From IMG/VR virus record IMGVR_UViG_3300025890_000019: a DNA stretch of 64,000 bases; one strand, given 5' to 3'. Positions within the stretch are counted from its first letter, which is position 1. Every line of letters starts with the position of its first letter. This document shows positions 6,389-42,884 of this stretch, one piece after another. The translations under genes were made by a program, and so were the position numbers. This DNA comes from a virus. The notes below the pieces were generated by a model, which did not search any database, was not told the origin of the DNA, and saw only the letters and a program-made list of their open reading frames with translations.

Positions 6389-6426
6389 TATAAATTAACC
6401 TTGTACAATATAATACCAAAAGACCG

Positions 6427-6562
6427 ATAAATAATACTAATGCAGAATCTGACCAGATTCAGCAGGACAAACCGTGGTCAACCGACGAAGAACTTATGAA
6501 TAATGTAAGGTGAAAATCAGGTTGGTGGGACAAGATCCCCGTGCTATAAAGGAGCAAAAACA
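6427..6562 (+). ncRNA. Candidate structured 5' leader / cis-regulatory RNA after a late promoter; also contains a 19-codon uORF (6440-6499)
   Basis: ATAAATA at 6427-6433; GC-richer spacer with stems GAATCT/AGATTC (6445-6460), CAACC/GGTTG (6479-6483/6520-6524), GGGA/TCCC (6527-6539); RBS AAAGGAG before 6563. Confidence 0.4.
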
Positions 6563-12814: not shown

Positions 12815-15800
12815 ATGGCAGATTTTCGAATAGATAGAATTAGATTTAGATGGAGAGGTGATTGGTCAGCCAACACTCTTTATGTAAAAGATGATGTATT
12901 AAGATACGGTGCAAAAGTATTTGTATGTGTTGAAGTACACACATCAGACACAAACTTTTACAACGACTTAAACAACGCAACTCCAAGATGGTCTCAAATG
13001 ATGGACGGTCAAAGTTGGACTGGCGAATGGACACCTTCAACATTTTATAAAATTGGCGAACTGGTTAAAGTTGGTGGTTTAATTTACAAATGTATTGAAG
13101 GACATATTTCAAATTCATCTGCATCAAATGGTGTACTAGGAGATGAATTAAAATGGGTGTACTTTGCTCGTGGAGAAGATTGGCAAAGTGTTTGGACACC
13201 TGCTACACTTTACAACGTTGACCAAACAGTAATTTACGGTGGATCAATTTGGAAATGTAACACAGCACACACTTCAGGAACTGCTGATGACGGTTTACAA
13301 TTCAATGCAGACTACTGGGATCAATATTCTAGATCAGACAATTTTAGAAGTGATTGGACTTCCAACACATTATACTATCCAGATGATATTGTGTATTATG
13401 GTGGTACAGTGTTTAGATGTCTAACAGGACACAGATCAGCCGCTTCTAATAAATTTGTAAATCCTACTGCCACATACGGCGGTGCAGAAGGAACAGGATT
13501 TCAATTTTTTATTTTTAAAGTTGGAGCAACTTACAATATCAAAATCACAAACGGTGGTTCAACTTATCTTGCTTCAGAAACTTTTACAATTTTAGGATCA
13601 GCAGTGGGCGGAGCAACACCGGCCAATGATATCACAATCACAATCAACACAGTCGACAATGGTGCTATAACCACAGTCGGAGTAAATGGTGTTGCCAATG
13701 ATGCCGCTGATGGACTAGAGGCAAACAGTGCCCAATGGGAAACTGTTTTCACAGGAATTAAATATAGAGGCGATTATGCTCATGGAGAAAGATATGCAGT
13801 AGGAGAACTTGTAAGATGGTCTCCAGGTATGTGGCAAGTGACCACAGGTCATTGGGCTACTGATGTCAACATGGTTGAAAGCAATTTCAATCTATGGATA
13901 CCAGGTTACGAATTTGAAGACGAATGGACAATTTCTCAATACTATCAACAAGGTGATGTTGTACTGTATGGAGGTTACACATATGTTGCGTTACAAAGTA
14001 ACATTGGTGTTGAACCTGCTGTTACAGATGCCACTGCAACTTGGGAATTACAAGTGGCTGGTTACACATTCAAAGGTGAGTGGGTAGCAACTTACATTGT
14101 TAACGATCAAGCAGAACCATTTCCATACAAAACTGGTGATGTGGTAAGAGCTGGTGGTGATTTATATATTGCAACACGAGACAATGAAAGTGTAGATCCT
14201 TCAACAAGAAGTGCATATGATCCAGGATCTGATGATCCATGGCCTTGGCAATTATTGGTAACAGGTAATGCATTCAAAGGACCTTGGAAAGAACAAGATT
14301 TAAATGGTCTCACAGGCGAATCAACGTACTTCCCGGGTGATGTTGTCACAGTGGCAGGCACACTCTACAAATGTATTTTAAAACATGAAGCAAATTCATC
14401 AGATGCAAAACCGCCACTGGATTTTGAATCTGAAAATGTTGGACCTTACTGGCAACTGTTAGCAACAGGACACACACCAAACGTGTTGGAATATCCTGGA
14501 GATATCAAAACTCAAAACGATGATTCAACAAGATTAAGAATTGGTGTAGGTGAATCAGGACAATTATTAAAAGTTGGATCAAATGACATTCCTTTCTGGG
14601 AAGACTTTGACGTAACTCCAAAAGTTTATTATGTATCGCCAGAAGGTAAAGACCTTGAAACACAAGGAGGTCAATTGGCGGCTCCTTTCAAAACAATTAA
14701 ATTTGCATGTGATTACATCAATGGCGACTTAGCCACTAGATCACCTGCAACAATTTTTATAAAAACAGGATTATATCAAGAAATTTTACCCATCACTGTG
14801 CCAAGAGACACAGCATTAGTTGGAGATGAACTGAGAAGCACAGAAGTAAAACCAGCGGCGGGTTACGAAACATCAAATATGTTTTATGTTAACAACGGTT
14901 CAGGCATTAGAAACATGTCATTGAGCGGATTAACAGGAACATTAGGAGCAATCAATCAATACGGAACAAAAAGACCATCAGGTGGAGCGTTTGTTTCACT
15001 AAACCCTGGGTCAGGTGCGTCAGATGCCGCGGCTTGGATCACAACACGTTCTTGTTATGTACAAAACGTATCAACGTTTGGAACAGGTTGTGTAGGTTTA
15101 AAAGTTGACGGAGATTTACACAATGGTGGTAATAAATCAATTGTTGCCAATGACTTTACACAGGTTATTGATAACGGTATTGGTTTCTGGGTTAACGGTG
15201 AAGGTAAAGCAGAACTTGTATCTGTGTTCACTTACTACTGTCACATAGGATATCTTGCTACTGACGGTGGTAAAGCAAGAGCAACAAATGGAAACAACTC
15301 TTATGGAGATTGGGGATCAGTTGCAGAAGGAGTTACTCCTACGGAAACGGCTATCACAGGAAAATTTAATAACAGAACACAAGAAGCTCAAGTAGATGCA
15401 GTTTACAACGATGAAAATGAAATATTTGCTTTTGCTTATGACCATGCAGGACAAGATTATACTTCTGCTACAATTGCCATAGCAGGTTCAGGAGAAGGTG
15501 CGGCGGCAACAATTAATTATGAAAACACAAGAGATGGTGCTGTAAACAAAGTAAGAATTTTAGGTCCAGGTGATTCAACACCAGCAGGGGGATCTGCATA
15601 TACAAGTAAATCAGGACCTGCAATCACAGGTACTGCAACAACAATTCAATTGAACCAACAGTTTCAAGGAACATCAGCACAAACAGTTGGACAAAGAATT
15701 TATATTTGGGAAGGTACAGGAAGAGGACAATACGGAATCATTGATGCATTCGATGAAGTAACAAAAACTTGTACAGTCAAAAAAGAATTTGATAACACAC

Positions 15801-18000: not shown

Positions 18001-21000
18001 ATGGCTGAGTTTAAATTAGGTAGAATACGTTTTGTTTGGAAAGGTGCTTGGTATACAAGTGCCCTTTATTCTGTAGATGATGTTGTAAGATATGGTGGTA
18101 GAACTTACATCTGTATAGTAAACCACACTTCTGCGGCAGAATTCCAAGATGATTTAACAGCGGCAAACTGGGCATTGATGTCCGATGGTCAAGAATGGAA
18201 AGGCGATTGGGGAGTCAACACAACTTACAAACCAAATGACGTTGTAAAATACGGTGGTTACATTTATATTTGTAACACAGGTCATGCCTCAAACGCAGAT
18301 GTTAACATTGGACTAGAAGGTGATCTTTCAAAATGGGATCTTTTCATTGAAGGTTTTGATTACAAAACAGACTGGGCAATCAGCACAAGATACAAAGTAA
18401 ACGATTTAGTAAGATACGGTGCAACCGTATACCTTTGTGTAACTGAACACACATCAGCATCAACTTTATCTGATGGATTAGAATTAGACCTTGCAAAATG
18501 GGAAGTGTTTGCAAAAGGATTTAACTGGTTAAACACTTGGGCTATCAACACAAGATACAAACCAAATGACACAGTAAGATATGGTGGACAACTTTACGTT
18601 TGTATCACTGGACACACTTCAGCGGCGACAGTTGCATTAGGATTAGAAAACGATCAAGCAAAATGGCAATACCTACACAAAGGTATTGAATATCTAGGCG
18701 ATTGGGTAACAGCAACAAGATACAAAGTAAATGACGTTGCAAAATATGGTGCTAACTTATGGATTGCAACAGCGGCTCACACAGCAGGCGCATCATTGGC
18801 GGCTGACGAAGCCAACTGGGACATTTTTATTCCAGGTTTAGAATTTGAAGATTCATGGGATTCCTCAACGCAGTACCAACCAGGTGACATTGTTACTTAC
18901 GGAGGTTACCAATACGTTGGATTAAGAAATAACTTAAACAAAGTTCCATCAACTGAAACGGCTGATTGGGATATATTTGTTACAGGTTTCAGTTTAAAAG
19001 GTGACTACAACAACGCAACTGCTTACAAAACAGGTGACGTAGTTAGAGTTGGTGGTACAACTTATATTGCTATTGCTGACACAACAGGAAACAGACCACC
19101 AAGTGTACTACACTGGGATAAATTAAACGAGGGTTTATACTGGAGAGGCACGTGGGCTAACGCAAATGTTTACGACAAAGGTGATATTGTAAGAGGATCT
19201 GTAAACACAGACACATCTTATATTTGTATAACATCACACACAGCAAACAATGTTGGACCAGCAACAATCAACCAACCAGATTATGCACCAGGAGTTGGTG
19301 TTGATACATCTGTTTGGCAATTGTTATCAGGTGGTCCAGAAAATGATGTTTTAGAATCAGAAGGTGACATTTTAATTTACGGTGCTTCAGGACCAGCAAG
19401 ATTACCAATTGGTGCTTCAGGACAAGCACTTGTTGTAAACTCTGCAGGTACTTTACCTGAATGGGGATTTGTTGGACAAGTAGATCAAGTTTACTATGTA
19501 GGACCAAATGGAACTGATGAACCGGCGCCTAACGCAGGTGTAACATTGGACAGACCATTCAGAAACATTAGATATGCACTACACCAAATTGATTTAGGAC
19601 CAAGAAATCCACAAGGTGTAAATCTATTAACCAGAAACAAAGCATTCATACAAGACGAAGTAATTGCATGGATCAATGATCAAATTACAGGAAATATTTC
19701 ACCATTCACAAATGCGTTCACTTATGACGCTGTGAAATGTAGAAGAGATATAGGAATTATTATTGATGCAACAATTAATGATCTGAAAAAAGGCGGAAAT
19801 GTCAAATCAAGAGAAGCGGCACTTTCTTATTTTACAGATTTAGGTGCTAGTTATGTTGCAGGACAAGAAGCAGAAACTGCCGCGGCAATTGTAAGAGCGG
19901 CATACATTGCTCAACAAGTGGTTGTAAATTCTACAGGTTACACGCCAGATCAAGCAACAACATTACAAGTATCAGATTTAACAAAAGTTGCAGAAGCAAC
20001 AGTGGTAGCAGACATAGAAACATTGATGACACTTTCATCAGATGCTATAACGGCTGGAGTTATCACAGGCATTCCTGCAAAATCACAACCTCAAATCACA
20101 CTGAATGTGAAAACAGGTATATACAACGAAATTTTACCAATGAGTGTTGCGGCAAATTGTGCTGTGGTTGGAGATGAATTGAGATCAACCAACATCAGAC
20201 CGGCGGCTTCAGTAGTTGCAAACGGTGATGTTCAATATTCTTTACAAGGTATTCAACGTATGGAAGCAATTATTTCAGATGTAATTCAAAACAATGCTGT
20301 TACAGTAACACCATCAGGTGGTATCATCACAGTGCCAACTGGTGCAAGTTTAGGTTACCAAGGTGCTGGTTTAATTGAAGGTACAGGCACAGTTAACACA
20401 ACAGCATCAGGATCAGGAACAGGTGCTACATTTACATTGACAACCAACGCATTTGGTTTTGTTACAGGATTAACTGTGTTAACTCCAGGACAAAATTATG
20501 TTGTAGGTGAAACAATCACTATTCCTTCAACAGAAACAATCAACAATCCGGGTACTGGTGACACAGCAATTGGTGAAACAATCACATTCCAAGTGTTAAC
20601 AGTGACAACAGGAAACACAGTCACACAAAACTTGGCAGTGCCAGCAGGTTCAAGTGCGGCAGGTACAGCGGCGGCGGCGATTGCTGATAATATTGAAAAA
20701 TACATTGACTTCAAAATCAATGACAATGGCACTGAACCAGCATTGACTGGTTCAAACACAGCAGAAGTCAGTGCTGGATACACAGATGCACGTCTAAGAT
20801 TGTTAGCCAACAGAGATTTTATTGCTAAAGAGTGTGCTGAATTTGTGAAAAGAGCAAATCCAGGTTACTCATTTGGTCAAAATGACTGTGAAGACGATAT
20901 TAAAGATTATGTAGACGGAATTATTTACGATTTACAGTACACAGGAAACTATATGTCACTGAAAGGTGCTAAATGGTATGTGAATGCTGTAGAAGGTTCA

Positions 21001-23370
21001 ACACTTTCAGACATGTTCTACATGAGAAACGCAACAGGTTTAAGAAACTGTACTGTACAAGGTTTATCAGGAGCATTAGGAGCCGCAAACAGTTATGGTA
21101 CAAAACGTCCAACAGCGGGTGCTTTTGTTTCTCTTGATCCAGGATATGGCACAGCAGATGAAAGCGTATGGATTGGTGCACTGAACGGTGCAGGTGGAAG
21201 ATCACCTTACATTCAAAACGTTACAACATTTGGAACAGGTGCTGTGGGACAAAAAATTGACGGAGATTTACACGCAGGTGGAAATGACTCCATGGTATCA
21301 AATGACTTTACTCAAGTAATATCAGATGGTATTGGTGCATGGATTACAAATTTAGGAAGAGCAGAACTTGTATCTGTGTTCTCATACTACGGACACATTG
21401 GATACCTTGCAGAAACAGGTGGAAAAATACGTGCAACAAACGGTAACTCATCATATGGTGATTTTGGTTGTGTGGCAGAAGGTGTTGACCCAACTGAAAT
21501 TCCTGTAACAGGTCTTGTTAACAACAGATCAACTGATGCTACAATTGACAGTGTGTTCACTGATGGTGAACAAATACTTGCACTTGAATTTGGAAATGCA
21601 GGTAGAGAATATTCAAACGCAACTATAACTATCACAGGTGATGGGTTTGGATTAAACACAGTCACAGCAACTTACAACACAGGTGGAGTTTACAGAATTA
21701 GATTAACAGAAACTCCTGCTTCAGATCCATCAGATTTAGGTGGTGACGGATATGTTACAACAACAAACTCAGGACAAACAGGTACAACAACACAAATCAC
21801 TTTGGCGGCGGCAGATTCGGCGGCAAGTGCAGTTTATGTTGGAATGGCATTGTTTGTTACAGAAGGTAAAGGTGCTGGACAGTACGGTTACATTGACACT
21901 TATACTTCTTCAAGCAAAGTTGCAACAATTAAAAAATTCTCAGATGATTCAGCAGGTTGGGACACACTAGGTGGCAAAGCAGTTGAGGCAACATTGGATT
22001 CAACAACAATTTACGAAATCACTCCAAGAGTGGTTATAGGTGCTCCAGATAACGATGGTTCAACAACTCCTAGACAGGCAGTTGCTAGAGCAGTGGTTAC
22101 AGGAGATGTTATTTCAAGTGTTAAAATACTAGATTGTGGTGCTTCTTATACAAGTGCACCAACTGTAACATTTGTAGATCCAAACAACTCTGTTGACGCA
22201 CCTGTACAAGCATACATTGGAGATGGTGTATTAGGTCAACCAACATACGTTGCAAGAGGATCAGATTATGTAACTGCTTCAGCAACAGTCACAGAACAAG
22301 GTGTACAAGCAACTGTAAATGCAATTACTCAGGCATCGCCAGCAGTGATTACAACCACAGCGGCACACAACTTTAACACCAATGACAAAGTTAAATTTAG
22401 CGGCATTATTGGAATGACTGATTTAAACTCTGGAGTATTTTATTATGTTAAAGTTTTAACAACAGATACATTTGAAATTTATGCAGACTATGATTTAACA
22501 GTAGCAATTGATTCAACTGCCTACACAGCATATACAAGTGGCGGAACAGCAGAAACATTTGGTGGTTTTAGAGACGACTATCAAACTGGCAAATACATTG
22601 CTGTTGAAAATTTAACATCGATTCCAAGAGCAGGTTCAAACATTGAGTTCGGTCATCTACCGGGACAATATTTCAAACTGGTTGTTGTAAATCAACAACT
22701 TGGAACGAAAACTCCTTTCACAGGATTGTTACAAGTTTCACCAGACATTAAATCTTATGAAGCACCAGAACACGGCGAAACTGTAGAAATGAGAATTAGA
22801 TATTCACAAGTTAGATTAACAGGACATGACTTCTTAGATATTGGTACAGGTAATATTACTAGCACCAATTATCCAGGTCTACCTGCTAAAAATCCAATAC
22901 CAGCAAACGAAGTTGTTGAAGGTGGCGGAGGAAGAGTGTTCTTTACTTCTACAGACCAAGATGGTAACTTTAGAGTAGGAGATTTATTCTCAGTAGAACA
23001 AGCAACTGGTATTGCTTCATTGAATGCAGATGCATTTAACATATCAGGACTACAAGAATTACAGTTGGGCGATTTGGCATTAGGTGGAACAAGTGCTTCT
23101 ATCAATGAATTCTCAACTGATGGTACAATGGCGGCTAATTCAGACGCAATTGTTCCGACACAAAGAGCAATAAGAACTTATATCGCTTCTCAAATTGGTG
23201 GTGGTGCTAGTTCGCTCAATGTTAACTTGATTACTGCGGGATTAGTGGTAATTACTGGTAATACGATAAGTACAAGTAACAACGTAGGGATCAATTTCCA
23301 AAGCGTCACTAACTTCAAAAAAGGAGTTACTGGTGTGCCGATTGCGATGAACTACTTAATACATAGTTAA
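18001..23370 (+). CDS. Large tail fibre protein: 8 Trp-rich repeats, beta-helix region, helical repeats, FCCH-like insert
   Basis: 1789 aa; same N-terminal repeats; YYVGPNGTD..G.TLDRPFRNIRYAL; shares NDFTQV..GIG.W, LVSVF.YY.HIGYLA, YSQVRLTGHDFLDIGTG and GGGRVF.TSTDQDGNFRVG with 12815. Confidence 0.75.
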   Translation: MAEFKLGRIRFVWKGAWYTSALYSVDDVVRYGGRTYICIVNHTSAAEFQDDLTAANWALMSDGQEWKGDWGVNTTYKPNDVVKYGGYIYICNTGHASNADVNIGLEGDLSKWDLFIEGFDYKTDWAISTRYKVNDLVRYGATVYLCVTEHTSASTLSDGLELDLAKWEVFAKGFNWLNTWAINTRYKPNDTVRYGGQLYVCITGHTSAATVALGLENDQAKWQYLHKGIEYLGDWVTATRYKVNDVAKYGANLWIATAAHTAGASLAADEANWDIFIPGLEFEDSWDSSTQYQPGDIVTYGGYQYVGLRNNLNKVPSTETADWDIFVTGFSLKGDYNNATAYKTGDVVRVGGTTYIAIADTTGNRPPSVLHWDKLNEGLYWRGTWANANVYDKGDIVRGSVNTDTSYICITSHTANNVGPATINQPDYAPGVGVDTSVWQLLSGGPENDVLESEGDILIYGASGPARLPIGASGQALVVNSAGTLPEWGFVGQVDQVYYVGPNGTDEPAPNAGVTLDRPFRNIRYALHQIDLGPRNPQGVNLLTRNKAFIQDEVIAWINDQITGNISPFTNAFTYDAVKCRRDIGIIIDATINDLKKGGNVKSREAALSYFTDLGASYVAGQEAETAAAIVRAAYIAQQVVVNSTGYTPDQATTLQVSDLTKVAEATVVADIETLMTLSSDAITAGVITGIPAKSQPQITLNVKTGIYNEILPMSVAANCAVVGDELRSTNIRPAASVVANGDVQYSLQGIQRMEAIISDVIQNNAVTVTPSGGIITVPTGASLGYQGAGLIEGTGTVNTTASGSGTGATFTLTTNAFGFVTGLTVLTPGQNYVVGETITIPSTETINNPGTGDTAIGETITFQVLTVTTGNTVTQNLAVPAGSSAAGTAAAAIADNIEKYIDFKINDNGTEPALTGSNTAEVSAGYTDARLRLLANRDFIAKECAEFVKRANPGYSFGQNDCEDDIKDYVDGIIYDLQYTGNYMSLKGAKWYVNAVEGSTLSDMFYMRNATGLRNCTVQGLSGALGAANSYGTKRPTAGAFVSLDPGYGTADESVWIGALNGAGGRSPYIQNVTTFGTGAVGQKIDGDLHAGGNDSMVSNDFTQVISDGIGAWITNLGRAELVSVFSYYGHIGYLAETGGKIRATNGNSSYGDFGCVAEGVDPTEIPVTGLVNNRSTDATIDSVFTDGEQILALEFGNAGREYSNATITITGDGFGLNTVTATYNTGGVYRIRLTETPASDPSDLGGDGYVTTTNSGQTGTTTQITLAAADSAASAVYVGMALFVTEGKGAGQYGYIDTYTSSSKVATIKKFSDDSAGWDTLGGKAVEATLDSTTIYEITPRVVIGAPDNDGSTTPRQAVARAVVTGDVISSVKILDCGASYTSAPTVTFVDPNNSVDAPVQAYIGDGVLGQPTYVARGSDYVTASATVTEQGVQATVNAITQASPAVITTTAAHNFNTNDKVKFSGIIGMTDLNSGVFYYVKVLTTDTFEIYADYDLTVAIDSTAYTAYTSGGTAETFGGFRDDYQTGKYIAVENLTSIPRAGSNIEFGHLPGQYFKLVVVNQQLGTKTPFTGLLQVSPDIKSYEAPEHGETVEMRIRYSQVRLTGHDFLDIGTGNITSTNYPGLPAKNPIPANEVVEGGGGRVFFTSTDQDGNFRVGDLFSVEQATGIASLNADAFNISGLQELQLGDLALGGTSASINEFSTDGTMAANSDAIVPTQRAIRTYIASQIGGGASSLNVNLITAGLVVITGNTISTSNNVGINFQSVTNFKKGVTGVPIAMNYLIHS

Positions 23371-23383
23371 AGGAGAAAATACG

Positions 23384-23704
23384 ATGGCTTCAGGAAGAAT
23401 AGGAAAAGCAGATCTTTTAGCCGCTACTAATACGACTGTATATACAACGCCTGCTGACACTTTTACGGTGGCAACGGTCTCGTTTTGTAACAGAGGTAAC
23501 CAAGCGGTTACAGTTAGACTAGCGGTAGCGGATACATCTACACCGGATAACTCAGAATATGTTGAATATGAAACAGAAATTATGAGTCATGGTGTGTTGG
23601 AAAGAACTGGTTTAGTACTGTCTGCAACGCAGTTATTGGTAGCACGTTCAAGTGCCGCTAATGTAAGTGCAGTTGTGAGTGGTATTGAAACAAGTACAGC
23701 ATAA
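23384..23704 (+). CDS. Small ~106-aa virion protein
   Basis: RBS AAGGAG; TTVYTTPA..TVATVSFCN...VLERTGLVL; paralog set with 1093 and 10302. Confidence 0.7.
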   Translation: MASGRIGKADLLAATNTTVYTTPADTFTVATVSFCNRGNQAVTVRLAVADTSTPDNSEYVEYETEIMSHGVLERTGLVLSATQLLVARSSAANVSAVVSGIETSTA

Positions 23705-23761: not shown

Positions 23762-24094
23762 ATGGGAAGATACATATCAACAACTGGAACTGCTGGCGTA
23801 GTCACTAGACAAGTGGCAACAACTTACCAAGCAGTGGTAAATGATAGAATCTTAGCAGATAGTGCCTCAGGCACTTTCACAATCACGTTACCTCTAAATG
23901 CTTCTTTGTTGATCAATGACACAATTCAAATCATTGATGCAACTTCGAACTTTGGAACTAACGCGGTTACAGTTGCTAGGAACGGTTCACTAATTCAAGG
24001 TTCAGCAGACGACTTAACAATGGACTTAAATGGTGCAATCGCAACTTTGATTTACACTGGTCCGACTTATGGTTGGATAATTGGTGCTGTATAA
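23762..24094 (+). CDS. Small virion/tail fibre protein
   Basis: 110 aa; ADS.SG.FTITLP.......D.I.IID...NF.TN.VTVARNG..I.G...DL.........LIY....YGW pattern of phage fibre beta-domains. Confidence 0.65.
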   Translation: MGRYISTTGTAGVVTRQVATTYQAVVNDRILADSASGTFTITLPLNASLLINDTIQIIDATSNFGTNAVTVARNGSLIQGSADDLTMDLNGAIATLIYTGPTYGWIIGAV

Positions 24095-24152
24095 TTTTTT
24101 ATAATTATTATATTAAATTTACAACATTTAAATACTTGGAGAAACAAAAACA

Positions 24153-25115
24153 ATGGCTAGTTTAAAATCATTACTCGGAACAAAACAGGACGCTTTCGTA
24201 TCGGTTGAAGAAAACAACCTAGAGAAAGGGCGTATCTACGTTTACACAAACGGAGCAAACTATTCTAGATTATGGTGTGGATTTTGTTTCCATCCAGCCG
24301 TGGCAGGGACTGCAATAGTTGAAACTTGGGGTTCAGGTGGATCAGGTGCAGAGATGTGTTGTTGTGGATTTGGAACACCAGGTAACGCAGGTGCTTATGT
24401 TAAAAAAGAAATTTCAATGTCTCCAGGAGACTACATCTGCGGATGTACAGGTTTAAGTTGTGGTAACTCAGACACACTTTGTTTTAGAGGTTGCTCAGAA
24501 CCAGCTCAAGTAAGATTTTGTATATCAGGCGCAGAGACTTGTGCTTGTGCAGAAGGCGGAAAAGGTGGAGTAACTTATTGTTCATCTCAAGCCAGTTTTT
24601 ATTGTTGTTACAGAGCAAACGGTTTCTGTGTAACAAGAACAAACAACGACAACTGCGGAATTGTTTGTAACCAATGCGATGGTTCATGGTGTGCTCAAGC
24701 ATACGGTGGTCAAACTAACGTGTGTGGAAGAATTTCATGTGTATCAGCATTTGGTTGTTATCCATCATGTATTTGTATGTTCCATCATCACATACCTACT
24801 CCAGCAGGAATGGGTTCTAAACTTGGTAGAATGATCACTTACACAAATGATGACAATAATGGAACACAGAATTGGTCAGGTATGGGACACTATCACCATT
24901 TAGCAAATTTAGGTTCAGGAAGATTTCCAACAGGCGGTGTGCCTTGGGCAAGTTGTTGGGACGGTGGAAGAACTTGTGGATGTTATCAAAACGATGGTTG
25001 TATACCTCAGATGCCGATTGGTACAGGAGGAAGAGGACCTAACCCATGTCCAGGTGTTAGAGATCACGCAATCAGAGGTGGACACGGAGGAGTACGAATC
25101 AAATTCGTAAGTTAA
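24153..25115 (+). CDS. Cysteine-rich glycine-rich-domain protein 1 (putative fibre tip)
   Basis: 320 aa, 31 Cys by hand count; ETWGSGGSG.EMCCC, PGNAGAYVKK, C-term GG.GGVRIKF. Confidence 0.75.
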   Translation: MASLKSLLGTKQDAFVSVEENNLEKGRIYVYTNGANYSRLWCGFCFHPAVAGTAIVETWGSGGSGAEMCCCGFGTPGNAGAYVKKEISMSPGDYICGCTGLSCGNSDTLCFRGCSEPAQVRFCISGAETCACAEGGKGGVTYCSSQASFYCCYRANGFCVTRTNNDNCGIVCNQCDGSWCAQAYGGQTNVCGRISCVSAFGCYPSCICMFHHHIPTPAGMGSKLGRMITYTNDDNNGTQNWSGMGHYHHLANLGSGRFPTGGVPWASCWDGGRTCGCYQNDGCIPQMPIGTGGRGPNPCPGVRDHAIRGGHGGVRIKFVS

Positions 25116-25119
25116 TTTT

Positions 25120-26136
25120 ATGGCTAGTTTAACAACATTACTTCAAACCAAATACGATTTTTCAGTAGGAAATGAGACTAACCTTGAAAAAGGTAGAATT
25201 TATCAATATTATCCAGGTACATCAAGAGGAACAAACTTTAGATGTCACGTGTGTTTCGTTGCACCATCAGATGGTACAGCAACCATAGAAATATGGGGAG
25301 CAGGTGGAAGTGGCGGAAAAATGTGTTGTTGCGGTGGAGGAATTCCAGGTAACCCAGGTGGTTATGCTAAGAAAACAATCGCAATGGCTGAAGGTTGTTA
25401 CGTTTGTGCAATTATTGGACTGTCATGTGGTAACTCAGACACACTTTGTTTTAGAGGTTGCTCAGAACCAACTCAAGTGTGTTGGTTTGGTGACGCAGGT
25501 GGTGATGGTTGTATATGTGCCCAAGGTGGTATAGGTGGAAGAACTTGGTGTTCAACTGGTAGTTCAATCTACTGTTGTGCAGTGGCGGCTAACTTCTGTA
25601 ACACACAGGGTGGCGGAACTTATTGCGGAATTGTTTGTAACTTTATGGATTCAGCATCATGTCCTCAATTCTGTGCTTTTGCATATGGTGGAGACACAAA
25701 CTGTTATGGTGGATTTAGTTGTCATTACTTTAGAGGATGTCAACCAAACTGTAACTGTAGACAGGTTCCAGTTAATAAATTTCCTCCAGGAATGATTTCA
25801 ACAGAGGGTGGTGAAGTACACTACACAATGGATTCAGACAACGGAAGATCACAATGGTCAGGAATGGGCGGTTGGATGAATGCTTCACATGGTTTCAACC
25901 TAGCAACACGTAACCCTACAACAGGCGGTCCTTACACTGGTTGTTGGGAAGGTAACAGAAGTTGTGGTTGTTACGATATGCAAGGTTGTAACACTTTTTA
26001 TCCAGCAGGTATTGGAGGACAAGGACCAACACCGTGTGATGGAGTAAGAGATCACGCACACAGAGGTGGTCACGGATTAATGAGAATTAAATTTATTTCA
26101 CCAACAGATGAATACGATCTACCAGCAGTACCGTAG
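25120..26136 (+). CDS. Cysteine-rich glycine-rich-domain protein 2
   Basis: 338 aa, 31 Cys; EIWGAGGSGGKMCCC; colinear with its neighbours. Confidence 0.75.
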   Translation: MASLTTLLQTKYDFSVGNETNLEKGRIYQYYPGTSRGTNFRCHVCFVAPSDGTATIEIWGAGGSGGKMCCCGGGIPGNPGGYAKKTIAMAEGCYVCAIIGLSCGNSDTLCFRGCSEPTQVCWFGDAGGDGCICAQGGIGGRTWCSTGSSIYCCAVAANFCNTQGGGTYCGIVCNFMDSASCPQFCAFAYGGDTNCYGGFSCHYFRGCQPNCNCRQVPVNKFPPGMISTEGGEVHYTMDSDNGRSQWSGMGGWMNASHGFNLATRNPTTGGPYTGCWEGNRSCGCYDMQGCNTFYPAGIGGQGPTPCDGVRDHAHRGGHGLMRIKFISPTDEYDLPAVP

Positions 26137-26163
26137 GTCACAGGAGATAGGATAAATATTATT

Positions 26164-27135
26164 ATGGCAAGTTTAAAAGGATTATTAACTACTAGAAACC
26201 CAGCAGAGATGATTGAAGACAATCTCGAAACTGGTTACATTTATTCATATACATCAGGCACAAACTACACAAAATTCTGTAATGGTATTTGTTGGACAGC
26301 AAGAGTTGACGGTACAGCAGAAATAGAAGTTTGGGGAGCAGGTGGATCAGGTTCAAGAATGTGTTGTTGTGGTGACGGATTACCAGGTAACGCAGGAGCC
26401 TATGTTAAAAAATCAATCACAGTAGAAGCAGGTGACACAATGACAGGTCAAACAGGACACAGTTGTTATGCTCACCCACTATGTCACTCAGGATGTTCAG
26501 AACAATCAGAAATTTGTTGGATCACAGCCGCAAATGGAAACGGATGTGTCTGTTCAAGAGGTGGATTTGGTGGTAAATCAATGTGTACAACAGGATCATC
26601 TTTATTCTGTTGTTTCAGAGCACAAGGTTTTTGTTATACAAAATGTAACAACGACAACTGTGGATTAGTATGTAACGTGTGTAACGGACACTGGTGTTCA
26701 TTAGGATACGGCGGAGACACTGGCAAAAACTGTTGCGGACAGTTTTCATGTGCTAGTTTCTTTGGATGTTGTCCACACTGTAAGTGTAGATTCCAACAAC
26801 ACGTGGCTACACCAGCAGGATTATTTGCAGACGAAGGTGCATTGATCACGTTCCAAAAAGAATCAGATGGAACTCCAATGTCACAATGGTCAGGAAACCA
26901 ATTATTTCAGTGGTATGCGGCACTTAACTTGGCAACAAAAACACCAAGACAAGGTACGCCAGATGCACACTGTTGGAGATCAACTAGATCTTGCGGATGT
27001 TATGAGATGCAAGGTTGTAACAATTACCTACCTGTGGGAGCAGGAGGACTATCACCAAACCCATGTCCGGATGTTAGAGATCACGGAATTAGAGGTGGAT
27101 TTGGTGGAGTAAGAATCAAGTTTGTTGCTAGTTAA
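26164..27135 (+). CDS. Cysteine-rich glycine-rich-domain protein 3
   Basis: 323 aa, 32 Cys; EVWGAGGSGSRMCCC; own ATAAATA at 26152-26158. Confidence 0.75.
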   Translation: MASLKGLLTTRNPAEMIEDNLETGYIYSYTSGTNYTKFCNGICWTARVDGTAEIEVWGAGGSGSRMCCCGDGLPGNAGAYVKKSITVEAGDTMTGQTGHSCYAHPLCHSGCSEQSEICWITAANGNGCVCSRGGFGGKSMCTTGSSLFCCFRAQGFCYTKCNNDNCGLVCNVCNGHWCSLGYGGDTGKNCCGQFSCASFFGCCPHCKCRFQQHVATPAGLFADEGALITFQKESDGTPMSQWSGNQLFQWYAALNLATKTPRQGTPDAHCWRSTRSCGCYEMQGCNNYLPVGAGGLSPNPCPDVRDHGIRGGFGGVRIKFVAS

Positions 27136-27177: not shown

Positions 27178-27834
27178 ATGGCAATAGCACAAGCATTTAC
27201 AATAGCAGTACCAAATGAACCATTCGTGAATGATTTTTCAGATGGTATCGAACAAGCGGCAACCTACAACGGTGAAAGATGGATCAAGTTCCAATACGAT
27301 GCAACTACAGGCGTAATTAAAAACGTGATTGGAAACGGTGACACTCAAGAAGAAATGACTGAAAATGAAGGTCCTTGTATGGAAGGTCATCTTCCAGGAA
27401 TAATTGATGCACAAGCACATCCACTACATGCGGCAATGATCACAAAATGGTATGATTCAGGCGAAAAAGCAGATTATTCAGAAGATTTAGGTACAACAGA
27501 CGCTGACGGCAATGCTGAAACTTGGGGATTTGTTTGGATAGACGGTCAAGGTCTTCTTGGACAAATTTGGGATCTAGAAACAATAAAATACGTAGACAAT
27601 GCCATTGTAGCACCAACGTTCAAAGAACATGGAACTACAGAAGAAATGTTTACTGAAAGTGTAACCAACATGATAGCAAACTGCACAACAGAGTTGGCTA
27701 GAACTGGTGTTTATACTACAGACGAAGCGGCGGCAATCACAGCACACAAAACAATGTTGGAAGGTATATCAACAAAGTATGATGGTGTGTCTTTTTGGAA
27801 AATTCCTTTTCCAGCATCACCTGACTTCAAGTAA
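27178..27834 (+). CDS. Hypothetical protein, possible fibre assembly chaperone (paralog of 27883)
   Basis: 218 aa, acidic; N-term VPNEPFVNDFS and C-term helix + WKIPFP..P reminiscent of tail-assembly chaperones; follows the fibre-tip genes. Confidence 0.55.
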   Translation: MAIAQAFTIAVPNEPFVNDFSDGIEQAATYNGERWIKFQYDATTGVIKNVIGNGDTQEEMTENEGPCMEGHLPGIIDAQAHPLHAAMITKWYDSGEKADYSEDLGTTDADGNAETWGFVWIDGQGLLGQIWDLETIKYVDNAIVAPTFKEHGTTEEMFTESVTNMIANCTTELARTGVYTTDEAAAITAHKTMLEGISTKYDGVSFWKIPFPASPDFK

Positions 27835-27882: not shown

Positions 27883-28551
27883 ATGAGTTTAGCCACCAGC
27901 AATCTTAATCACATTACATTCCAAATGGAAATTCCTGACGAACCCTATGTGGATAATTTTAGTCAAGGACGTACACATACAGCCCACTACACCGGAGAAA
28001 CATTTTTAAAAATGGCTGTTGAAGACAGTACTGGTTTGATTGGAGAATGTTTGTGGGCGGCAGAATCACTAGAACTGCTTGAACAAAGAATCTGTCATCC
28101 CGAGCCAGGGCATTCTACTTTAGTAATAGATGCTAGAAATAATCCATGGGAAGCGGCATATATTAGAAACACATACTCACACGACGAAGTGCCTAACTAC
28201 GAAGAAGATGTAGGGCAAGTGGACAGTGATGGCAATCCTATAATATGGGATTATTCTTGGGGTCATGTGTTGAATCAGATTTATTACATAAACGATTTAA
28301 AATACATCAATGGTGAATTTGTAAAACCTAGATTCAGACTGCATCAACACACAAATGAAGAAGTACACAGAGATGTTGTCAAGCATATTGAAATGTGTGA
28401 CAGAGAATTGGCAAGAGATTTAGTTTACCGTGACAATGAAAGAACAGCCATTGAAAATTGTAAAGCACAATGGATAGTTATACGAGACAATTTTAGTCAT
28501 GTGCTTCATTGGAAGTTAAAATATCCTGACATGCCATTAATCAAACCATAG
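27883..28551 (+). CDS. Hypothetical protein, possible fibre assembly chaperone (paralog of 27178)
   Basis: 222 aa; IPDEPYVDNFS ... C..ELAR..VY..E..AI ... WKLKYP..P. Confidence 0.55.
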   Translation: MSLATSNLNHITFQMEIPDEPYVDNFSQGRTHTAHYTGETFLKMAVEDSTGLIGECLWAAESLELLEQRICHPEPGHSTLVIDARNNPWEAAYIRNTYSHDEVPNYEEDVGQVDSDGNPIIWDYSWGHVLNQIYYINDLKYINGEFVKPRFRLHQHTNEEVHRDVVKHIEMCDRELARDLVYRDNERTAIENCKAQWIVIRDNFSHVLHWKLKYPDMPLIKP

Positions 28552-28600: not shown

Positions 28601-29554
28601 ATGAATACACAACAAAAAAGACCCAAAGCATTTTTACTCAATGGTGGAATAGGAAGAATTATATCTGCTATACCTGCCTTAGAAAAATATCAAGAAGAAG
28701 GAAACGATCCAGATTTTATCATTGTGATAGAAGGTGAATGTGATATCCTAAAAGGACATCCAACATTGGATTCAAAAACTTATGACATGTATCATAAAAA
28801 TTTATTCCACACAAAACTAGTCAACATGGATATTGTAAGTCCTGAACCATACAGAGTGCATGATTATTTTAATCAAAAATGTAATATTGCACAGGCATTC
28901 GATATGTTGATAAACAAAAAAGGTATTAGAGAATTACCTAAATCAACATTAGTGTTAAACAAAGAAGAATTAATTGCAGGACAAAAAGCAATAATCGAAG
29001 TAAAAGAAAAATTAAAAAAAGAAAAAGTTGTTGTGATTCAACCCTTTGGAAGAGCAATACAACAAATTGATGGCTCTTTTGTTGATAAAACAAACAGAAG
29101 TATTGAATTTTTTAATTTAAAAAATTTAATCAAAAAATTACAGGAAAAAGATTTTGCAGTTATGCTGATGAGTGAGTTTGGTATAGACTTTAAAGATGCA
29201 GGATTCCCTGACGAAGTAGCAATGCCTGAAAAAGTATCAATAAGACAATGGGCCGCAATTATAAAACATGCTGATCATTTTTTAGGGTGTGATTCTTTAG
29301 GACAGCACCTTGCTTACAGTTTAGATGTACCATCAAGTGTGATATTTGGTGCAACATATCCTGAAAATACTTCATATAAAAAATCAGAAAACTTTAATCA
29401 TATTGATCTAGGACAAATGGAACGTGAATATGATCCAATTAGAATCACAATGGATGAAAGAATCAGCAGAAAAAATGAAAAAATAATGGCAATGTCGCCT
29501 GAAATAGAAGATTATGTAATTGCCGCAGTCAATGGTGAACCAATAGAGGAATAA
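28601..29554 (+). CDS. GT9-like (heptosyltransferase-fold) glycosyltransferase A
   Basis: FLLNGGIGRIISAIPAL; VVVIQPFG; ADHFLGCDSLGQHLAYSLDVPSSVIFGAT matches the GT9 pattern F.G.DSG..HLA.A...P...FG.T. Confidence 0.7.
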   Translation: MNTQQKRPKAFLLNGGIGRIISAIPALEKYQEEGNDPDFIIVIEGECDILKGHPTLDSKTYDMYHKNLFHTKLVNMDIVSPEPYRVHDYFNQKCNIAQAFDMLINKKGIRELPKSTLVLNKEELIAGQKAIIEVKEKLKKEKVVVIQPFGRAIQQIDGSFVDKTNRSIEFFNLKNLIKKLQEKDFAVMLMSEFGIDFKDAGFPDEVAMPEKVSIRQWAAIIKHADHFLGCDSLGQHLAYSLDVPSSVIFGATYPENTSYKKSENFNHIDLGQMEREYDPIRITMDERISRKNEKIMAMSPEIEDYVIAAVNGEPIEE

Positions 29555-29556
29555 CA

Positions 29557-31386
29557 ATGGATGATATAGAAAAATATAACAAAACGGGATATATTGCCGC
29601 AATAGCCAGAGGACACAACGCAGGTGTTTGTCTTTTAAAAGACGGTGAAGTGGTTTTTTCAATTGAAGAAGAACGTTTATCTAGAAGAAAATATGATGGT
29701 GGGCCGTATGCATCCATGGTGGAGATATTAAAATACACAGACAAGATTGATTATCTTGTTGTTGCTCACACACAAGGTTTAGATGATAGATCAACAGGTA
29801 GAGTTGATTATTCAGGTGACGATGTGTACACAGGGATAGCAAGAAAATTAGGATTAATTGATAGACACGTGCAAGACACAAAACATCCTCAGGTGATAGA
29901 TTTAGCACACATTCATCACAAACTACATGCCGCATGTGCGTTTTATAGATCAGGATTTGACAAAGCAGTTGCAGTTATAGTTGACGGTGCTGGAACTTTT
30001 ATTCCAATTAAAAACAGTATTTCTGGAGAAATCACAGTGTTTGAAGTTGAAAGTATTTTCAGTTGTGATTATCCAAATGATATTTTTGCATTGTATAAAC
30101 ATTATGGTACGGGAGAAGCAAGTCCAGGAGCATTTTATCCAGACTTTGCTTCTGATTCCATAGGCGAGCCAGGCAAAACACACCAAGCATTGTTCACAGA
30201 CCATGCTGGTATTGTAAAAGTTTATGAAGCAGTTACACAGTATTGTGGATTCTCGGCAATCGAAGCAGGTAAAACAATGGGATTATTTCCTTATGGAAAA
30301 CCAAATGACATGGTTCCTAAACTTTTTAAGAAGGAAGGGTATTATTCTTTATCAGATAGGAATTTTATTATACCAACATATCCAAATGCTTCCATAGTGA
30401 ACAGTGGACTTTATCCTTATATTGATGAAAACCCTCAATCAGATGCCAAAGACGATTGGACAACATTACAAAATAGGAGAGATCTAGCATATGCAGTACA
30501 AACTGAATCACAAAAAGAATGTTTAGACTTAATTTACAAAGCAGTAAAATTAAGTGGTTGTAAAAACGTTGTATTTTCAGGAGGATACGGATTGAACTGT
30601 GTTGCTAATTATTATTATCTAGAACAATTAAGAAAAGATGGCATAAACTTTTATGCTGAACCAGTATCAAATGATGCAGGAACGGCAATGGGTGCGGCGA
30701 TGTTGTTTTATTACAGTCTCACTCAATCAAAAGAAAAGAAAGTTGATGAACCTACATTATACCTTGGACCAAAAAGAACATACACATCAGATCAAATTGA
30801 AAAAGTGTGTGAACAAGACGGTGTAGAATTATCAGATGCAACCAATGAAGAAGTAGTAAAAATTATCACTGATAAAAATATTGTTTCAGTGTTCCAAGGA
30901 GCCAGTGAAAACGGTCCTAGAGCATTGGGTAACAGATCAATATTATACGATCCAAGAGATCCAAACGGTAAAGATCATGTAAACAAAGTGAAACATAGAG
31001 AATATTTCAGACCTTTTGCTGGAACCATATTGCATGAATACGTGCATGAATGGTTCGATTTAAGAGGCATGGACGAAACCCCTCACATGATGTATGCAGT
31101 AAATTGTCAGCCAGGAATTGAAGAAAAAATACCTAGCATCATACACGTTGACGGAACTTGCAGAATACAATCTGTGAAAAGAGAACAAAATCCGTTGTAT
31201 TATGACTTGATTAAAGAGTTTCATAAGCAAACAGAATGTCCGATAATTTTCAACACATCATTTAATTTAGGCGGAGAGCCATTAGTAGAAACATTAGAAG
31301 ATGCTGTGAGAACATTAGTACACAGTGAAATAGAATATTTGTTTTTGCCTGAATACAATAAATTAATAAAGGTAGCAAACAAATGA
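29557..31386 (+). CDS. O-carbamoyltransferase (TobZ/NodU/CmcH family)
   Basis: 609 aa; LLKDGEV..IEEERLSRRK, HHKLHAACAFY, VDGAG, GK.MGL.PYG, SGG.GLNCVAN, DAGTA.GAA, E.GPRALGNRS, K.RE.FRPFA, HVDGT.RIQ, NTSFN..GEPLV. Confidence 0.92.
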   Translation: MDDIEKYNKTGYIAAIARGHNAGVCLLKDGEVVFSIEEERLSRRKYDGGPYASMVEILKYTDKIDYLVVAHTQGLDDRSTGRVDYSGDDVYTGIARKLGLIDRHVQDTKHPQVIDLAHIHHKLHAACAFYRSGFDKAVAVIVDGAGTFIPIKNSISGEITVFEVESIFSCDYPNDIFALYKHYGTGEASPGAFYPDFASDSIGEPGKTHQALFTDHAGIVKVYEAVTQYCGFSAIEAGKTMGLFPYGKPNDMVPKLFKKEGYYSLSDRNFIIPTYPNASIVNSGLYPYIDENPQSDAKDDWTTLQNRRDLAYAVQTESQKECLDLIYKAVKLSGCKNVVFSGGYGLNCVANYYYLEQLRKDGINFYAEPVSNDAGTAMGAAMLFYYSLTQSKEKKVDEPTLYLGPKRTYTSDQIEKVCEQDGVELSDATNEEVVKIITDKNIVSVFQGASENGPRALGNRSILYDPRDPNGKDHVNKVKHREYFRPFAGTILHEYVHEWFDLRGMDETPHMMYAVNCQPGIEEKIPSIIHVDGTCRIQSVKREQNPLYYDLIKEFHKQTECPIIFNTSFNLGGEPLVETLEDAVRTLVHSEIEYLFLPEYNKLIKVANK

Positions 31387-32363
31387 GCAAAAAAACAGCG
31401 ATATTTTTAAATGGTGGTGCTGGTAGAATGATAAGTTCTATCCCAGCAGTAGAAAAATATCTTGAAGAAAATCCTGAAAAGGATCCAATACTAGTGTGCG
31501 AAGGTGGAACAGATGCTTTCAAAGGACACCCTAAATTGTATTTTAGAGCCTACGACAGTTGGCATAAAAATTTATTTCAAGAACTGCTTAAAGATAGAGA
31601 ATTAATCAGTCCTGAGCCATACAGAATTTGGGAATATTACAATCAAAAATGTAGCCTTGCTCAAGCATACGACATTGCCATCAATGACAAAGGTATTAGA
31701 GATTTGCCAGCACCAACTATTAGACTGAGCAAAGAAGAGATACTAATGGCAAGAAAAATGATTGCTGAAGTAAAGGAAAAAACAGGCAAAAACAAAATTG
31801 TTGTGGTTCAACCATTTGGACGAGGTGCTCAGCCTGAAAACATTACTGAAAAACAAATGAAAGACGGCAAACAGCCAGACATCACAGACGTCACTGGCAG
31901 AAGTATTGAACTAAAAAATATTTGGAGCATTGTAAAAAAACTATCTAAAAAATATGGAGTTATGATGATGAGTGAATTCCCACTAGAATTTAAACATCAC
32001 ATGTCGGCTCCTGTGGCAACACCAATGAATGTACACATAAGAATATGGATGGCTGTGATTAAACAAGCCAATCATTTTGTTGGTTGCGACTCTGTTGGAC
32101 AACACCTTGCATACGCATTTAATGGAACTGCTACGGTGTTGATAGGTTCTACATATCCCATAAACACATCATTTCCTGACTCAGATAATTTCGATATTAT
32201 TGATCTTGGATCTGAAGATAGAGTGTATTCTCCCATAAGAATCACTTCAGACGAATTGAGTGACAGATTGAATGAAGGTATCATGGCTATGGATGATCGA
32301 GCAGAAGATGATGTTATTAGATCTGTTGAAAAGATGCTTAAACACAGTAAAAACAAGCAGTAA
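31383..32363 (+). CDS. GT9-like glycosyltransferase B
   Basis: FLNGGAGRMISSIPA; VVVQPFGR; ANHFVGCDSVGQHLAYA; paralog of 28601; ATGA overlap with the carbamoyltransferase. Confidence 0.7.
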   Translation: MSKKTAIFLNGGAGRMISSIPAVEKYLEENPEKDPILVCEGGTDAFKGHPKLYFRAYDSWHKNLFQELLKDRELISPEPYRIWEYYNQKCSLAQAYDIAINDKGIRDLPAPTIRLSKEEILMARKMIAEVKEKTGKNKIVVVQPFGRGAQPENITEKQMKDGKQPDITDVTGRSIELKNIWSIVKKLSKKYGVMMMSEFPLEFKHHMSAPVATPMNVHIRIWMAVIKQANHFVGCDSVGQHLAYAFNGTATVLIGSTYPINTSFPDSDNFDIIDLGSEDRVYSPIRITSDELSDRLNEGIMAMDDRAEDDVIRSVEKMLKHSKNKQ

Positions 32364-41791: not shown

Positions 41792-41913
41792 TGCTCCAAC
41801 TCATCAAACATATATGCGAGACGTGTGGGTGTGAACAACACTGCAAAAAATCGTGTGGAGAATGTCTAGATTGTCCAGACTGTGTTTGTAAGGAATGTAT
41901 TAACAAAGACTGA
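41791..41913 (+). CDS. 40-aa metallothionein-like Cys-rich peptide (not in the supplied ORF track)
   Basis: MLQLIKHICETCGCEQHCKKSCGECLDCPDCVCKECINKD: 10 Cys + 2 His; TAATG coupling to the giant gene; next ATG 4 nt downstream. Confidence 0.7.
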   Translation: MLQLIKHICETCGCEQHCKKSCGECLDCPDCVCKECINKD

Positions 41914-42506: not shown

Positions 42507-42884
42507 TTATTTTTCTTCTATTTTTTGTGAATCGCCAGGAATGATTCTATAATTGTCTTCTGGATCGTCAGCAGTGCTCACTTCAGTGATGCTACCTCGA
42601 TCAGTTAAACATTGAACTTGATGTGGCATTAGAGGTAAATTTCTCCATGTTTCGCCTTCTTTAAGTTCTTTTGTAAGTAACGTTGCAGTTTGAGTATCAA
42701 TCCAACTTAACAAAAATTTACCCTCATTTACAAACCAAGTTTCATCTTTGGTTTTATGAAAATGCATTGAAAATTTAGCACCTTTTCTTTCAAACACCAT
42801 TATTTTACCACAGTATTTGTCGTTGGAAGCCCAAATTAATTCGTATCCCCAACCTTTGTCTACTTTACCTTCTTTATTAATCAT
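42507..42884 (-). CDS. Cupin, mannose-6-phosphate-isomerase/ketol-isomerase-like
   Basis: KGWGYE.IW...KYCGKI....G.KFSMHFH..KDETW.V; PL.PH; EVST. Confidence 0.75.
   Translation of the reverse strand: MINKEGKVDKGWGYELIWASNDKYCGKIMVFERKGAKFSMHFHKTKDETWFVNEGKFLLSWIDTQTATLLTKELKEGETWRNLPLMPHQVQCLTDRGSITEVSTADDPEDNYRIIPGDSQKIEEK

Follow-up and report, generated by a model that had tools for sequence, protein, structure and literature searches.

Among receptor-binding modules, glycine-rich fibre tips are widespread, and they are thought to owe their stability to a polyglycine lattice. In the cyanophage Pam3, the receptor-recognising end of the trimeric fibre is a TNF-like plus glycine-rich fold (PMC9608196, PMC9942802), and the fibre assembles together with a chaperone of its own, gp25 (PMC9608196). 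Functional disulfides have been documented in the tails of phages Pam3 (PMC9942802) and Milano (PMC10811340). Here we analysed three tandem genes, named paralogs A, B and C, at 24153–27135 of a 64,000-nucleotide stretch of viral DNA (IMG/VR virus record IMGVR_UViG_3300025890_000019; the whole stretch is hereafter the window). Our analysis leans towards a reading in which these genes encode a Cys-rich variant of the glycine-rich tip, forming a trimer from paralogs, with the conserved Cys residues acting as structural cross-links (disulfide and/or metal) that replace much of the polyglycine lattice.

Results

Three Cys-rich paralogs on a predicted fibre-tip scaffold

The window had previously been read from its letters alone, and this sequence-only reading proposed a triad of Cys-rich paralogs with aligned Cys positions, surrounded by Cys-poor genes, on a glycine-rich scaffold of the type found in phage fibre tips. 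The three open reading frames (ORFs) and their Cys counts were recovered exactly as proposed, and the neighbouring genes are indeed poor in Cys: the remaining 32 plus-strand ORFs of at least 120 amino acids (aa) in the window contain 0–1.8% Cys. Set against the 9.2–9.9% Cys of paralogs A, B and C, these values mean that the Cys richness of the triad cannot be due to chance. The three proteins, which also contain 15–18% Gly, are 48–54% identical in pairwise comparisons and share 25 identical Cys columns. Every one of the quoted Cys motifs is present in the paralog alignment (MCCC, F/YCC, C-x3-C-x-C, CW..R.CGCY...GC and PCP/PCD), as are the glycine motifs WG.GGSG and RGG.G.(V/M)RIKF. At the nucleotide level, the 2 kb block at 24001–26000 shows a peak in GC skew together with a loss of AT skew, as expected from the abundant TGY and GGN codons.

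A search of public proteins returned 267 homologs, equal in length and nearly all of marine metagenomic origin, indicating that the three genes are real; Cys content was 7.9–11.2% in all 120 of those listed. An exhaustive search of cluster representatives added 169 further homologs with identities down to about 31%, of which those of at least 280 aa carry 5.6–12.3% Cys. The stretch 24153–27135 itself recurs almost unchanged (98–99% of sampled words) in marine metagenomes from at least eight studies dated 2014–2025, and is also contained in two metatranscriptome runs.

An AlphaFold2 model of paralog C, built with 38 homologs, reached a mean predicted local distance difference test (pLDDT) score of 76.5. 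Foldseek analysis of this model against the PDB gave the fibre of cyanophage Pam3 (E 7e-5), and 154 of the viral models searched matched at E≤0.001, with glycine-rich domain proteins, collagen-like proteins, minor tail proteins or tail fibres frequent among the names listed. Structural alignment with VIA-align placed Pam3 gp24 at the top, with Z scores of 15.6 (203 residues aligned, root-mean-square deviation (rmsd) 5.1) and 14.9 (194 aligned, rmsd 3.1), followed by the tail tip of Bxb1 (Z 12.2) and the TNF-like plus glycine-rich domain of ALK/LTK (Z 8–9.3), with the next rows falling below Z 5. Similarly, 84 of 100 feature matches in the ESM Atlas belong to clusters carrying PF21722 (Gly_rich_2), a family found in 47% of their members. 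The S16/T2 gp38-type adhesin with its polyglycine sandwich (PDB 6F45) was not among the matches listed, which does not exclude such a likeness. A PHROG search of the tips yielded a single weak match, to a family whose function is unknown, and the family alignment, used as a profile against PDB sequences, yielded nothing. On the strength of the model, the triad scaffold is a TNF-like plus glycine-rich fold, and the matches to Pam3 gp24 in both structural searches bear out the fibre-tip scaffold anticipated from the sequence.

The comparison with Pam3 gp24 (PDB 7YPX and 7YFW) brings out what is particular to the triad. The predicted likeness extends over a TNF-like beta-sandwich and a glycine-rich distal domain, with about 200 residues aligned and a sequence identity of about 15%, between what would both be fibre tips. 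However, gp24 has 39% Gly in its glycine-rich domain (PMC9608196), against 15–18% Gly and about 10% Cys in the triad, and the one Cys of gp24 that its authors take up is Cys28, which forms a bridge with the wedge (PMC9942802), whereas each chain of the triad has around 30. In addition, gp24 has a long N-terminal helical bundle and forms a homotrimer from one gene, in contrast to the short N-terminal peptide and the two or three paralogs of the present family. The tail-tip protein of mycobacteriophage Bxb1 (PDB 9D93, chain Qa) shares the fold predicted for the triad (179 residues aligned) and is likewise located at a tail tip, but is only 16% identical over the structural alignment and comes from another host and phage type. 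The extracellular TG domain of ALK/LTK shares the supradomain predicted for the triad in an unrelated context, namely the ectodomain of an animal receptor with a protein ligand.

A canonical relative of the PF21722 type is Syn9 gp38, which resembles the triad in its N-terminal strand and first glycine motif, in its C-terminal G.G..I strand and in its position after the fibre genes. A local hhalign match between the two covers residues 37–94 (E 0.005, with a probability of only 7%). In contrast to the triad, Syn9 gp38 contains 0.8% Cys and 22% Gly, and a search of the Syn9 genome revealed neither of the two enzymes, a GT9-like glycosyltransferase and a carbamoyltransferase, that accompany the triad (see below). 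Short glycine motifs are nevertheless retained in the family (WGAGGSG, G.G.PGN.G, GG.GG, YGGD and RGG.G). Compared with canonical Syn9 gp38, this family has exchanged a good part of its glycine for cysteine: roughly half of the Gly usual for the fold is absent, and some 30 Cys are there. Syn9 encodes three glycine-rich proteins after its fibre genes, gp36 (13856–14806) with 35% Gly, gp38, and gp39 with 23% Gly, so tip paralogs also come in multiples outside the Cys-rich variant.

Conservation and covariation of the Cys residues

Conservation of the Cys positions among homologs, on which the sequence-only reading depended, was assessed in a family alignment of 158 non-identical members from 79 viral contigs (residue numbers are those of paralog C). 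The positions proved to be conserved, so the reading is not refuted on this point. Seventeen Cys columns are invariant (43, 67–69, 128, 130, 141, 149, 150, 166, 170, 206, 208, 270, 277, 279 and 301; at 141 and 270, 99% of the sequences have Cys) and six more are near-invariant (101, 107, 157, 196, 202 and 285). Around 16 further columns hold Cys only in some paralogs, and these variable sites exchange with Arg, Trp, Tyr or Thr. The conserved spacings are CCC, CxC, CC and Cx3C; no CxxC is common to all paralogs in this alignment, and His is absent from the invariant and near-invariant columns of a 38-sequence alignment. No obvious hypervariable receptor loop was seen in the family alignment, column entropy being fairly even outside the glycine motifs.

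Two pairs of Cys columns change together. Cys-157 and Cys-202 are jointly lost in seven sequences, where mostly Tyr and Ala stand in their place, and Cys-161 and Cys-203 are mostly gained jointly, behaviour that is expected of residues that touch. No further convincing pairs were found beyond these two, the other perfect correlations each being confined to a single clade.

Paralog copy number and a predicted trimer

The occurrence of the triad was scanned in 83 sequences, comprising the 79 contigs, the window and a near-identical record in three overlapping pieces. A tandem triad is present in 64 of them. In the midpoint-rooted family tree, the first, second and third genes fall into three separate clades, with paralog B branching first, indicating that the triplication is old and that the gene order has been fixed since. 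At the single-copy loci, the copy lies downstream of the capsid genes, with a baseplate wedge gene beside it. Such loci were considered as a Cys-rich lineage lacking glycosyltransferase neighbours, an idea that was ruled out: four of the five single-copy records checked carry two more copies about 23 kb away, in a canonical cassette with the GT9-like/carbamoyltransferase pair. Exactly three copies were counted in eight of nine large related metagenomic records, two of which are CheckV-complete (364 kb and 161 kb), and the ninth is a 19% fragment. The paralogs thus constitute a multi-gene set of fixed copy number.

Modelling of A, B and C as a complex gave an ipSAE score of 0.85 (best control, 0.01). 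That mark was attained by 58 of 80 solved complexes, but also by 2 of 110 mismatched pairs. At least 82% of contacts are common to the runs, with a partner pLDDT of at least 74. In the modelled trimer, the N-terminal strand of each chain (approximately residues 22–30) packs on residues 220–235 and 255–270 of the next chain. The model supports a TNF-like trimer, in which A, B and C would assemble by N-terminal strand exchange, most simply in a 1:1:1 ratio. The sequence-only reading had raised a heterotrimer of the three paralogs. Its trimeric part is made plausible by the fixed copy number, the old orthogroups and the ipSAE score; its heteromeric part is not settled by the model, which does not separate a heterotrimer from homotrimers, since close cousins also pass the complex test and the Pam3 trimer has already been solved.

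We know of no heterotrimeric phage fibre tip described to date. It is a serious possibility, if the lesser one, that the three paralogs form three homotrimers serving as alternative tips with different receptor specificities, a question of assembly that is independent of the chemistry of the Cys residues. A, B and C differ little in their N-terminal docking strand (NLExGxIY), which gives no obvious pairing specificity. The window encodes five giant fibre-like proteins, one lineage has moved one copy beside the baseplate wedge gene, P-SSM2 holds only two copies, and solved relatives such as Pam3 gp24 are homotrimers (PMC9608196). However, a variable number of copies would be expected of alternative host-range tips, whereas the 64 triad loci and the eight large related metagenomic records showed no copy lost or gained, and all three orthogroups are retained in fixed order.

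A conserved fibre cassette in the window

The triad belongs to a conserved fibre cassette that lies among tail-fibre or baseplate genes (Table 1). The gene order, in which a 1789-aa fibre protein, a 106-aa protein and a 110-aa protein are followed by the Cys-rich tips, protein X in one or two copies, the GT9-like enzyme, the carbamoyltransferase and often a second GT9-like enzyme, is held in every locus that reaches far enough, down to identities of about 50%. From this gene context we infer that the triad is part of the virion.

Table 1 Features of the fibre cassette in the window
Feature	Position	Strand	Description
1789-aa fibre protein opening the cassette	18001..23370	+	Segment identities of 39–50% with the S-CAM1 protein annotated as tail fiber; upstream of the triad in related loci
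106-aa small protein, candidate fibre adaptor	23384..23704	+	PHROG tail-fibre families phrog_11338, phrog_1276 and phrog_693; 49% identical to the S-CAM1 counterpart
110-aa small protein, candidate fibre adaptor	23762..24094	+	Syntenic in all lineages examined; 34% identical to the S-CAM1 counterpart
Paralog A	24153..25115	+	Predicted TNF-like plus glycine-rich domain protein, rich in Cys; 31 Cys in 320 aa (9.7%); orthogroup A; chain 1 of the trimer model
Paralog B	25120..26136	+	338 aa, 31 Cys (9.2%); orthogroup B; chain 2 of the trimer model
Paralog C	26164..27135	+	323 aa, 32 Cys (9.9%); protein used for the monomer model
X218, candidate assembly chaperone	27178..27834	+	218 aa; directly after the tips in every locus extending past them, and in S-CAM1
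X222, paralog of X218	27883..28551	+	32% identical to X218; two copies only in some lineages
GT9-like glycosyltransferase	28601..29554	+	Pfam Glyco_transf_9, E 1.7e-6; 51% identical to the S-CAM1 gene
Carbamoyltransferase (NodU/CmcH type)	29557..31386	+	Pfam Carbam_trans_C (4e-59) and Carbam_trans_N (1e-22); syntenic in all lineages
Second GT9-like paralog	31383..32363	+	51% identical to the first; in many, not all, loci

The 106-aa protein precedes the triad wherever a locus extends far enough upstream. The 110-aa protein matches approximately positions 99–175 of several tail-spike or tail-protein PHROGs of about 1000 aa, as well as the last 100 or so positions of two PHROG families of unknown function. 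Downstream of the tips, X218 was modelled with a pLDDT of 96.5 as an N-terminal beta domain of about 150 aa followed by a C-terminal three-helix domain. Neither Foldseek nor VIA-align matched this fold in the PDB, the best hit (Z 7.2) covering only the generic three-helix end. By analogy, protein X resembles the Pam3 chaperone gp25 in its position and two-domain layout. It was also considered as a thiol oxidase, which was ruled out because protein X has no conserved Cys; two of its His residues are conserved.

The GT9-like enzyme carries an NGGxGR motif that does not vary in 76 homologs, the S-CAM1 gene among them; Vibrio phage D505 has a shorter and distant relative that reads DGGLGR. Searches of the PDB with the single sequence and with a profile gave nothing usable, and the equivalence of the motif Arg to the catalytic Asp of GT9 enzymes was not confirmed. 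ADP-heptose genes are also present in the window. A small cupin encoded in this heptose cassette (42507–42884, minus strand) is 37% identical to a gene annotated as 'cysteine dioxygenase' in S-CAM1, S-SSM7 and P-SSM2, where it sits at the end of the same cassette.

The cassette in cyanophages and other marine viruses

Four cyanophages, S-CAM1, S-CAM3, S-SSM7 and P-SSM2, have the cassette as well, as does the single-cell marine virus AG-345-O18. A tblastn search of GenBank phages with paralog A at E 1e-5 gave no match, and one with paralog C, relaxed to E 1, gave S-CAM1 only. GenBank phages were also searched with the GT9-like enzyme alone, followed by inspection of the neighbourhoods of its homologs. 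In S-CAM1, a member of the Kyanoviridae, the X-like protein, the GT9-like enzyme and the carbamoyltransferase are 24%, 51% and 48% identical, respectively, to those of the window; this phage encodes three tip proteins with 11.6, 11.2 and 8.4% Cys and has heptose pathway genes downstream. Three Cys-rich tips (10.6–11.5% Cys) are located near the GT9-like homolog of S-SSM7, and two each were found in P-SSM2 (both 10.1% Cys) and AG-345-O18 (9.6% and 10.7% Cys). A 758-aa protein of AG-345-O18 (5021–7297) contains 9.6% Cys and starts like the 106-aa protein of the window (MASGR.G.), and thus appears to be an adaptor fused to a Cys-rich tip.

The cyanophage counterparts, in S-CAM1 (SXBG_00224-226), S-CAM3, S-SSM7 (114-116) and P-SSM2 (304, 306), are annotated merely as hypothetical proteins. 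They resemble the triad in their place in the same cassette and in their 8–12% Cys, but differ from it in being only about 25% identical, in the lineage-specific nature of many Cys positions and, in P-SSM2, in having two copies. The tips diverge faster than any other part of the cassette, with about 25% identity between those of the window and those of S-CAM1, yet they retain their Cys content and the CCC, CxC-type and CC motifs; CCC/CCCG is also seen in the S-SSM7 and P-SSM2 proteins.

The large terminase of the window (58667–60250, plus strand) is closest among isolates to that of the Pseudomonas jumbo phage PA5oct, at 52% identity, and no isolate exceeds this value, indicating that the phage belongs to an uncultured marine group. 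That the fibre cassette is nevertheless common to the Kyanoviridae suggests a host-recognition module that has been transferred between unrelated marine phages.

Every genome in which a Cys-rich tip set was found also encodes a GT9-like enzyme and a carbamoyltransferase, mostly directly adjacent to the tips, and searches from both the tips and the enzyme found no Cys-rich homolog in a genome lacking the two. The co-occurrence opens the prospect that many of the Cys residues are acceptors, the GT9-like enzymes transferring heptose to thiols (S-glycosylation) and the carbamoyltransferase capping the sugar, a scheme to which we assign a low likelihood. In its favour are the absence of both enzymes from Syn9 with its Cys-poor tips, the invariant NGGxGR motif and the ADP-heptose genes of the window, and the exchange of variable Cys sites with Arg, Trp, Tyr or Thr, as surface sites would do. 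However, the cassettes are homologous, and the co-occurrence may therefore reflect common descent rather than functional coupling. The proposed Arg/Asp equivalence lacks a PDB sequence match that would confirm it, and the invariant Cys residues lie in core-like motifs beside the glycine motifs, unlike surface glycosites. Nor are we aware of any account of protein S-heptosylation. The enzymes could instead act on Ser/Thr or on host lipopolysaccharide (LPS), the latter being assumed by Sullivan 2010 (PMC3037559), where these cyanophage regions are described as LPS gene clusters of unknown role and the Cys-rich proteins go unmentioned.

Discussion

Structural cross-linking, by disulfide and/or metal, is the most likely role of the conserved Cys residues. 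The sequence-only reading had proposed metal-cluster loading, disulfide locking after lysis or thiol modification, and the first two, singly or together, would come under such cross-linking. The fuller reading, in which a Cys-rich glycine-rich tip forms a trimer from paralogs and these cross-links replace much of the polyglycine lattice, is modestly favoured by the evidence above. In this scheme, the three genes would encode the distal, host-facing tail-fibre tip of an uncultured marine myophage. The tip trimer would sit on the 1789-aa fibre via the two proteins of about 110 aa, and the downstream protein X may help its assembly. The conserved CCC, CxC, CC and Cx3C motifs would brace the part of the fold that is held by the polyglycine lattice in ordinary members, with disulfides that would form when the virion enters oxic seawater and might act alongside bound metal, and the outcome would be a very stable tip. 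The GT9-like enzyme, the carbamoyltransferase and the ADP-heptose genes probably decorate the fibre module.

Several observations weigh against this picture. Tip proteins must first fold in a reducing cytoplasm. No Erv1/ALR sulfhydryl oxidase was found in five related records, a search that was also silent in all 14 control genomes, and thioredoxin is present in only one of these five records. The Cys counts show no preference for even numbers, being even in 46% of proteins and in 31 of 47 triads (strongly related rows), so not every Cys can sit in a disulfide. Pfam searches at E≤0.1 assigned no family to A, B or C, PF21722 (Gly_rich_2) being unmatched. The complex test may lean on the solved Pam3 trimer and passes close cousins, and the whole genome of P-SSM2 contains two paralogs, not three. 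Finally, the virion proteomes of Sullivan 2010 (PMC3037559) cover only S-SM1, S-PM2 and Syn9, none of which carries the cassette.

Some of these points would be met if the Cys residues mainly held metal (Zn, Cu, Fe or small clusters) in the manner of metallothioneins, a possibility that we regard as unlikely. Metal could be loaded in the cytoplasm, so that folding need not wait for oxidation, and neither the missing even-number rule nor the failure to find a phage thiol oxidase in the five related records (and in the equally silent controls) would then be surprising. CxC and CC motifs are typical of metallothioneins, and the window also contains a 40-aa ORF with 10 Cys and many CxxC pairs (41791–41913, plus strand). 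This small ORF lies directly after a 2344-aa structural gene and before a methyltransferase. However, metallothioneins contain about 30% Cys, against 10% in the triad, no CxxC is conserved in all paralogs, and His does not occupy the invariant or near-invariant columns. The 157/202 pair, moreover, behaves like a replaced disulfide, with mostly one large and one small residue substituted for the two Cys.

The fold and the fibre-tip role are already known, and the Cys-rich subfamily is undescribed in the literature searched, as are its fixed paralog set and its linkage to the GT9-like enzyme and the carbamoyltransferase. What sets the subfamily apart is the replacement of part of the polyglycine lattice by around 30 conserved Cys per chain, in two or three paralogs kept as a fixed set, within a cassette that abundant cyanophages of the ocean have in common with a large group of uncultured phages. 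The readings set out here are directly testable in three phages available in culture, S-CAM1, S-SSM7 and P-SSM2. If the link to the enzymes is functional, the cyanophage LPS gene clusters (Sullivan 2010, PMC3037559) may decorate virions rather than host cells, and if S-glycosylation is true, the tip would be an S-glycosylated, oxidation-protected receptor-binding module bearing a new protein modification. If instead the disulfide/metal framework is true, these phages would provide a new route to a very stable adhesin made in a reducing cytoplasm.

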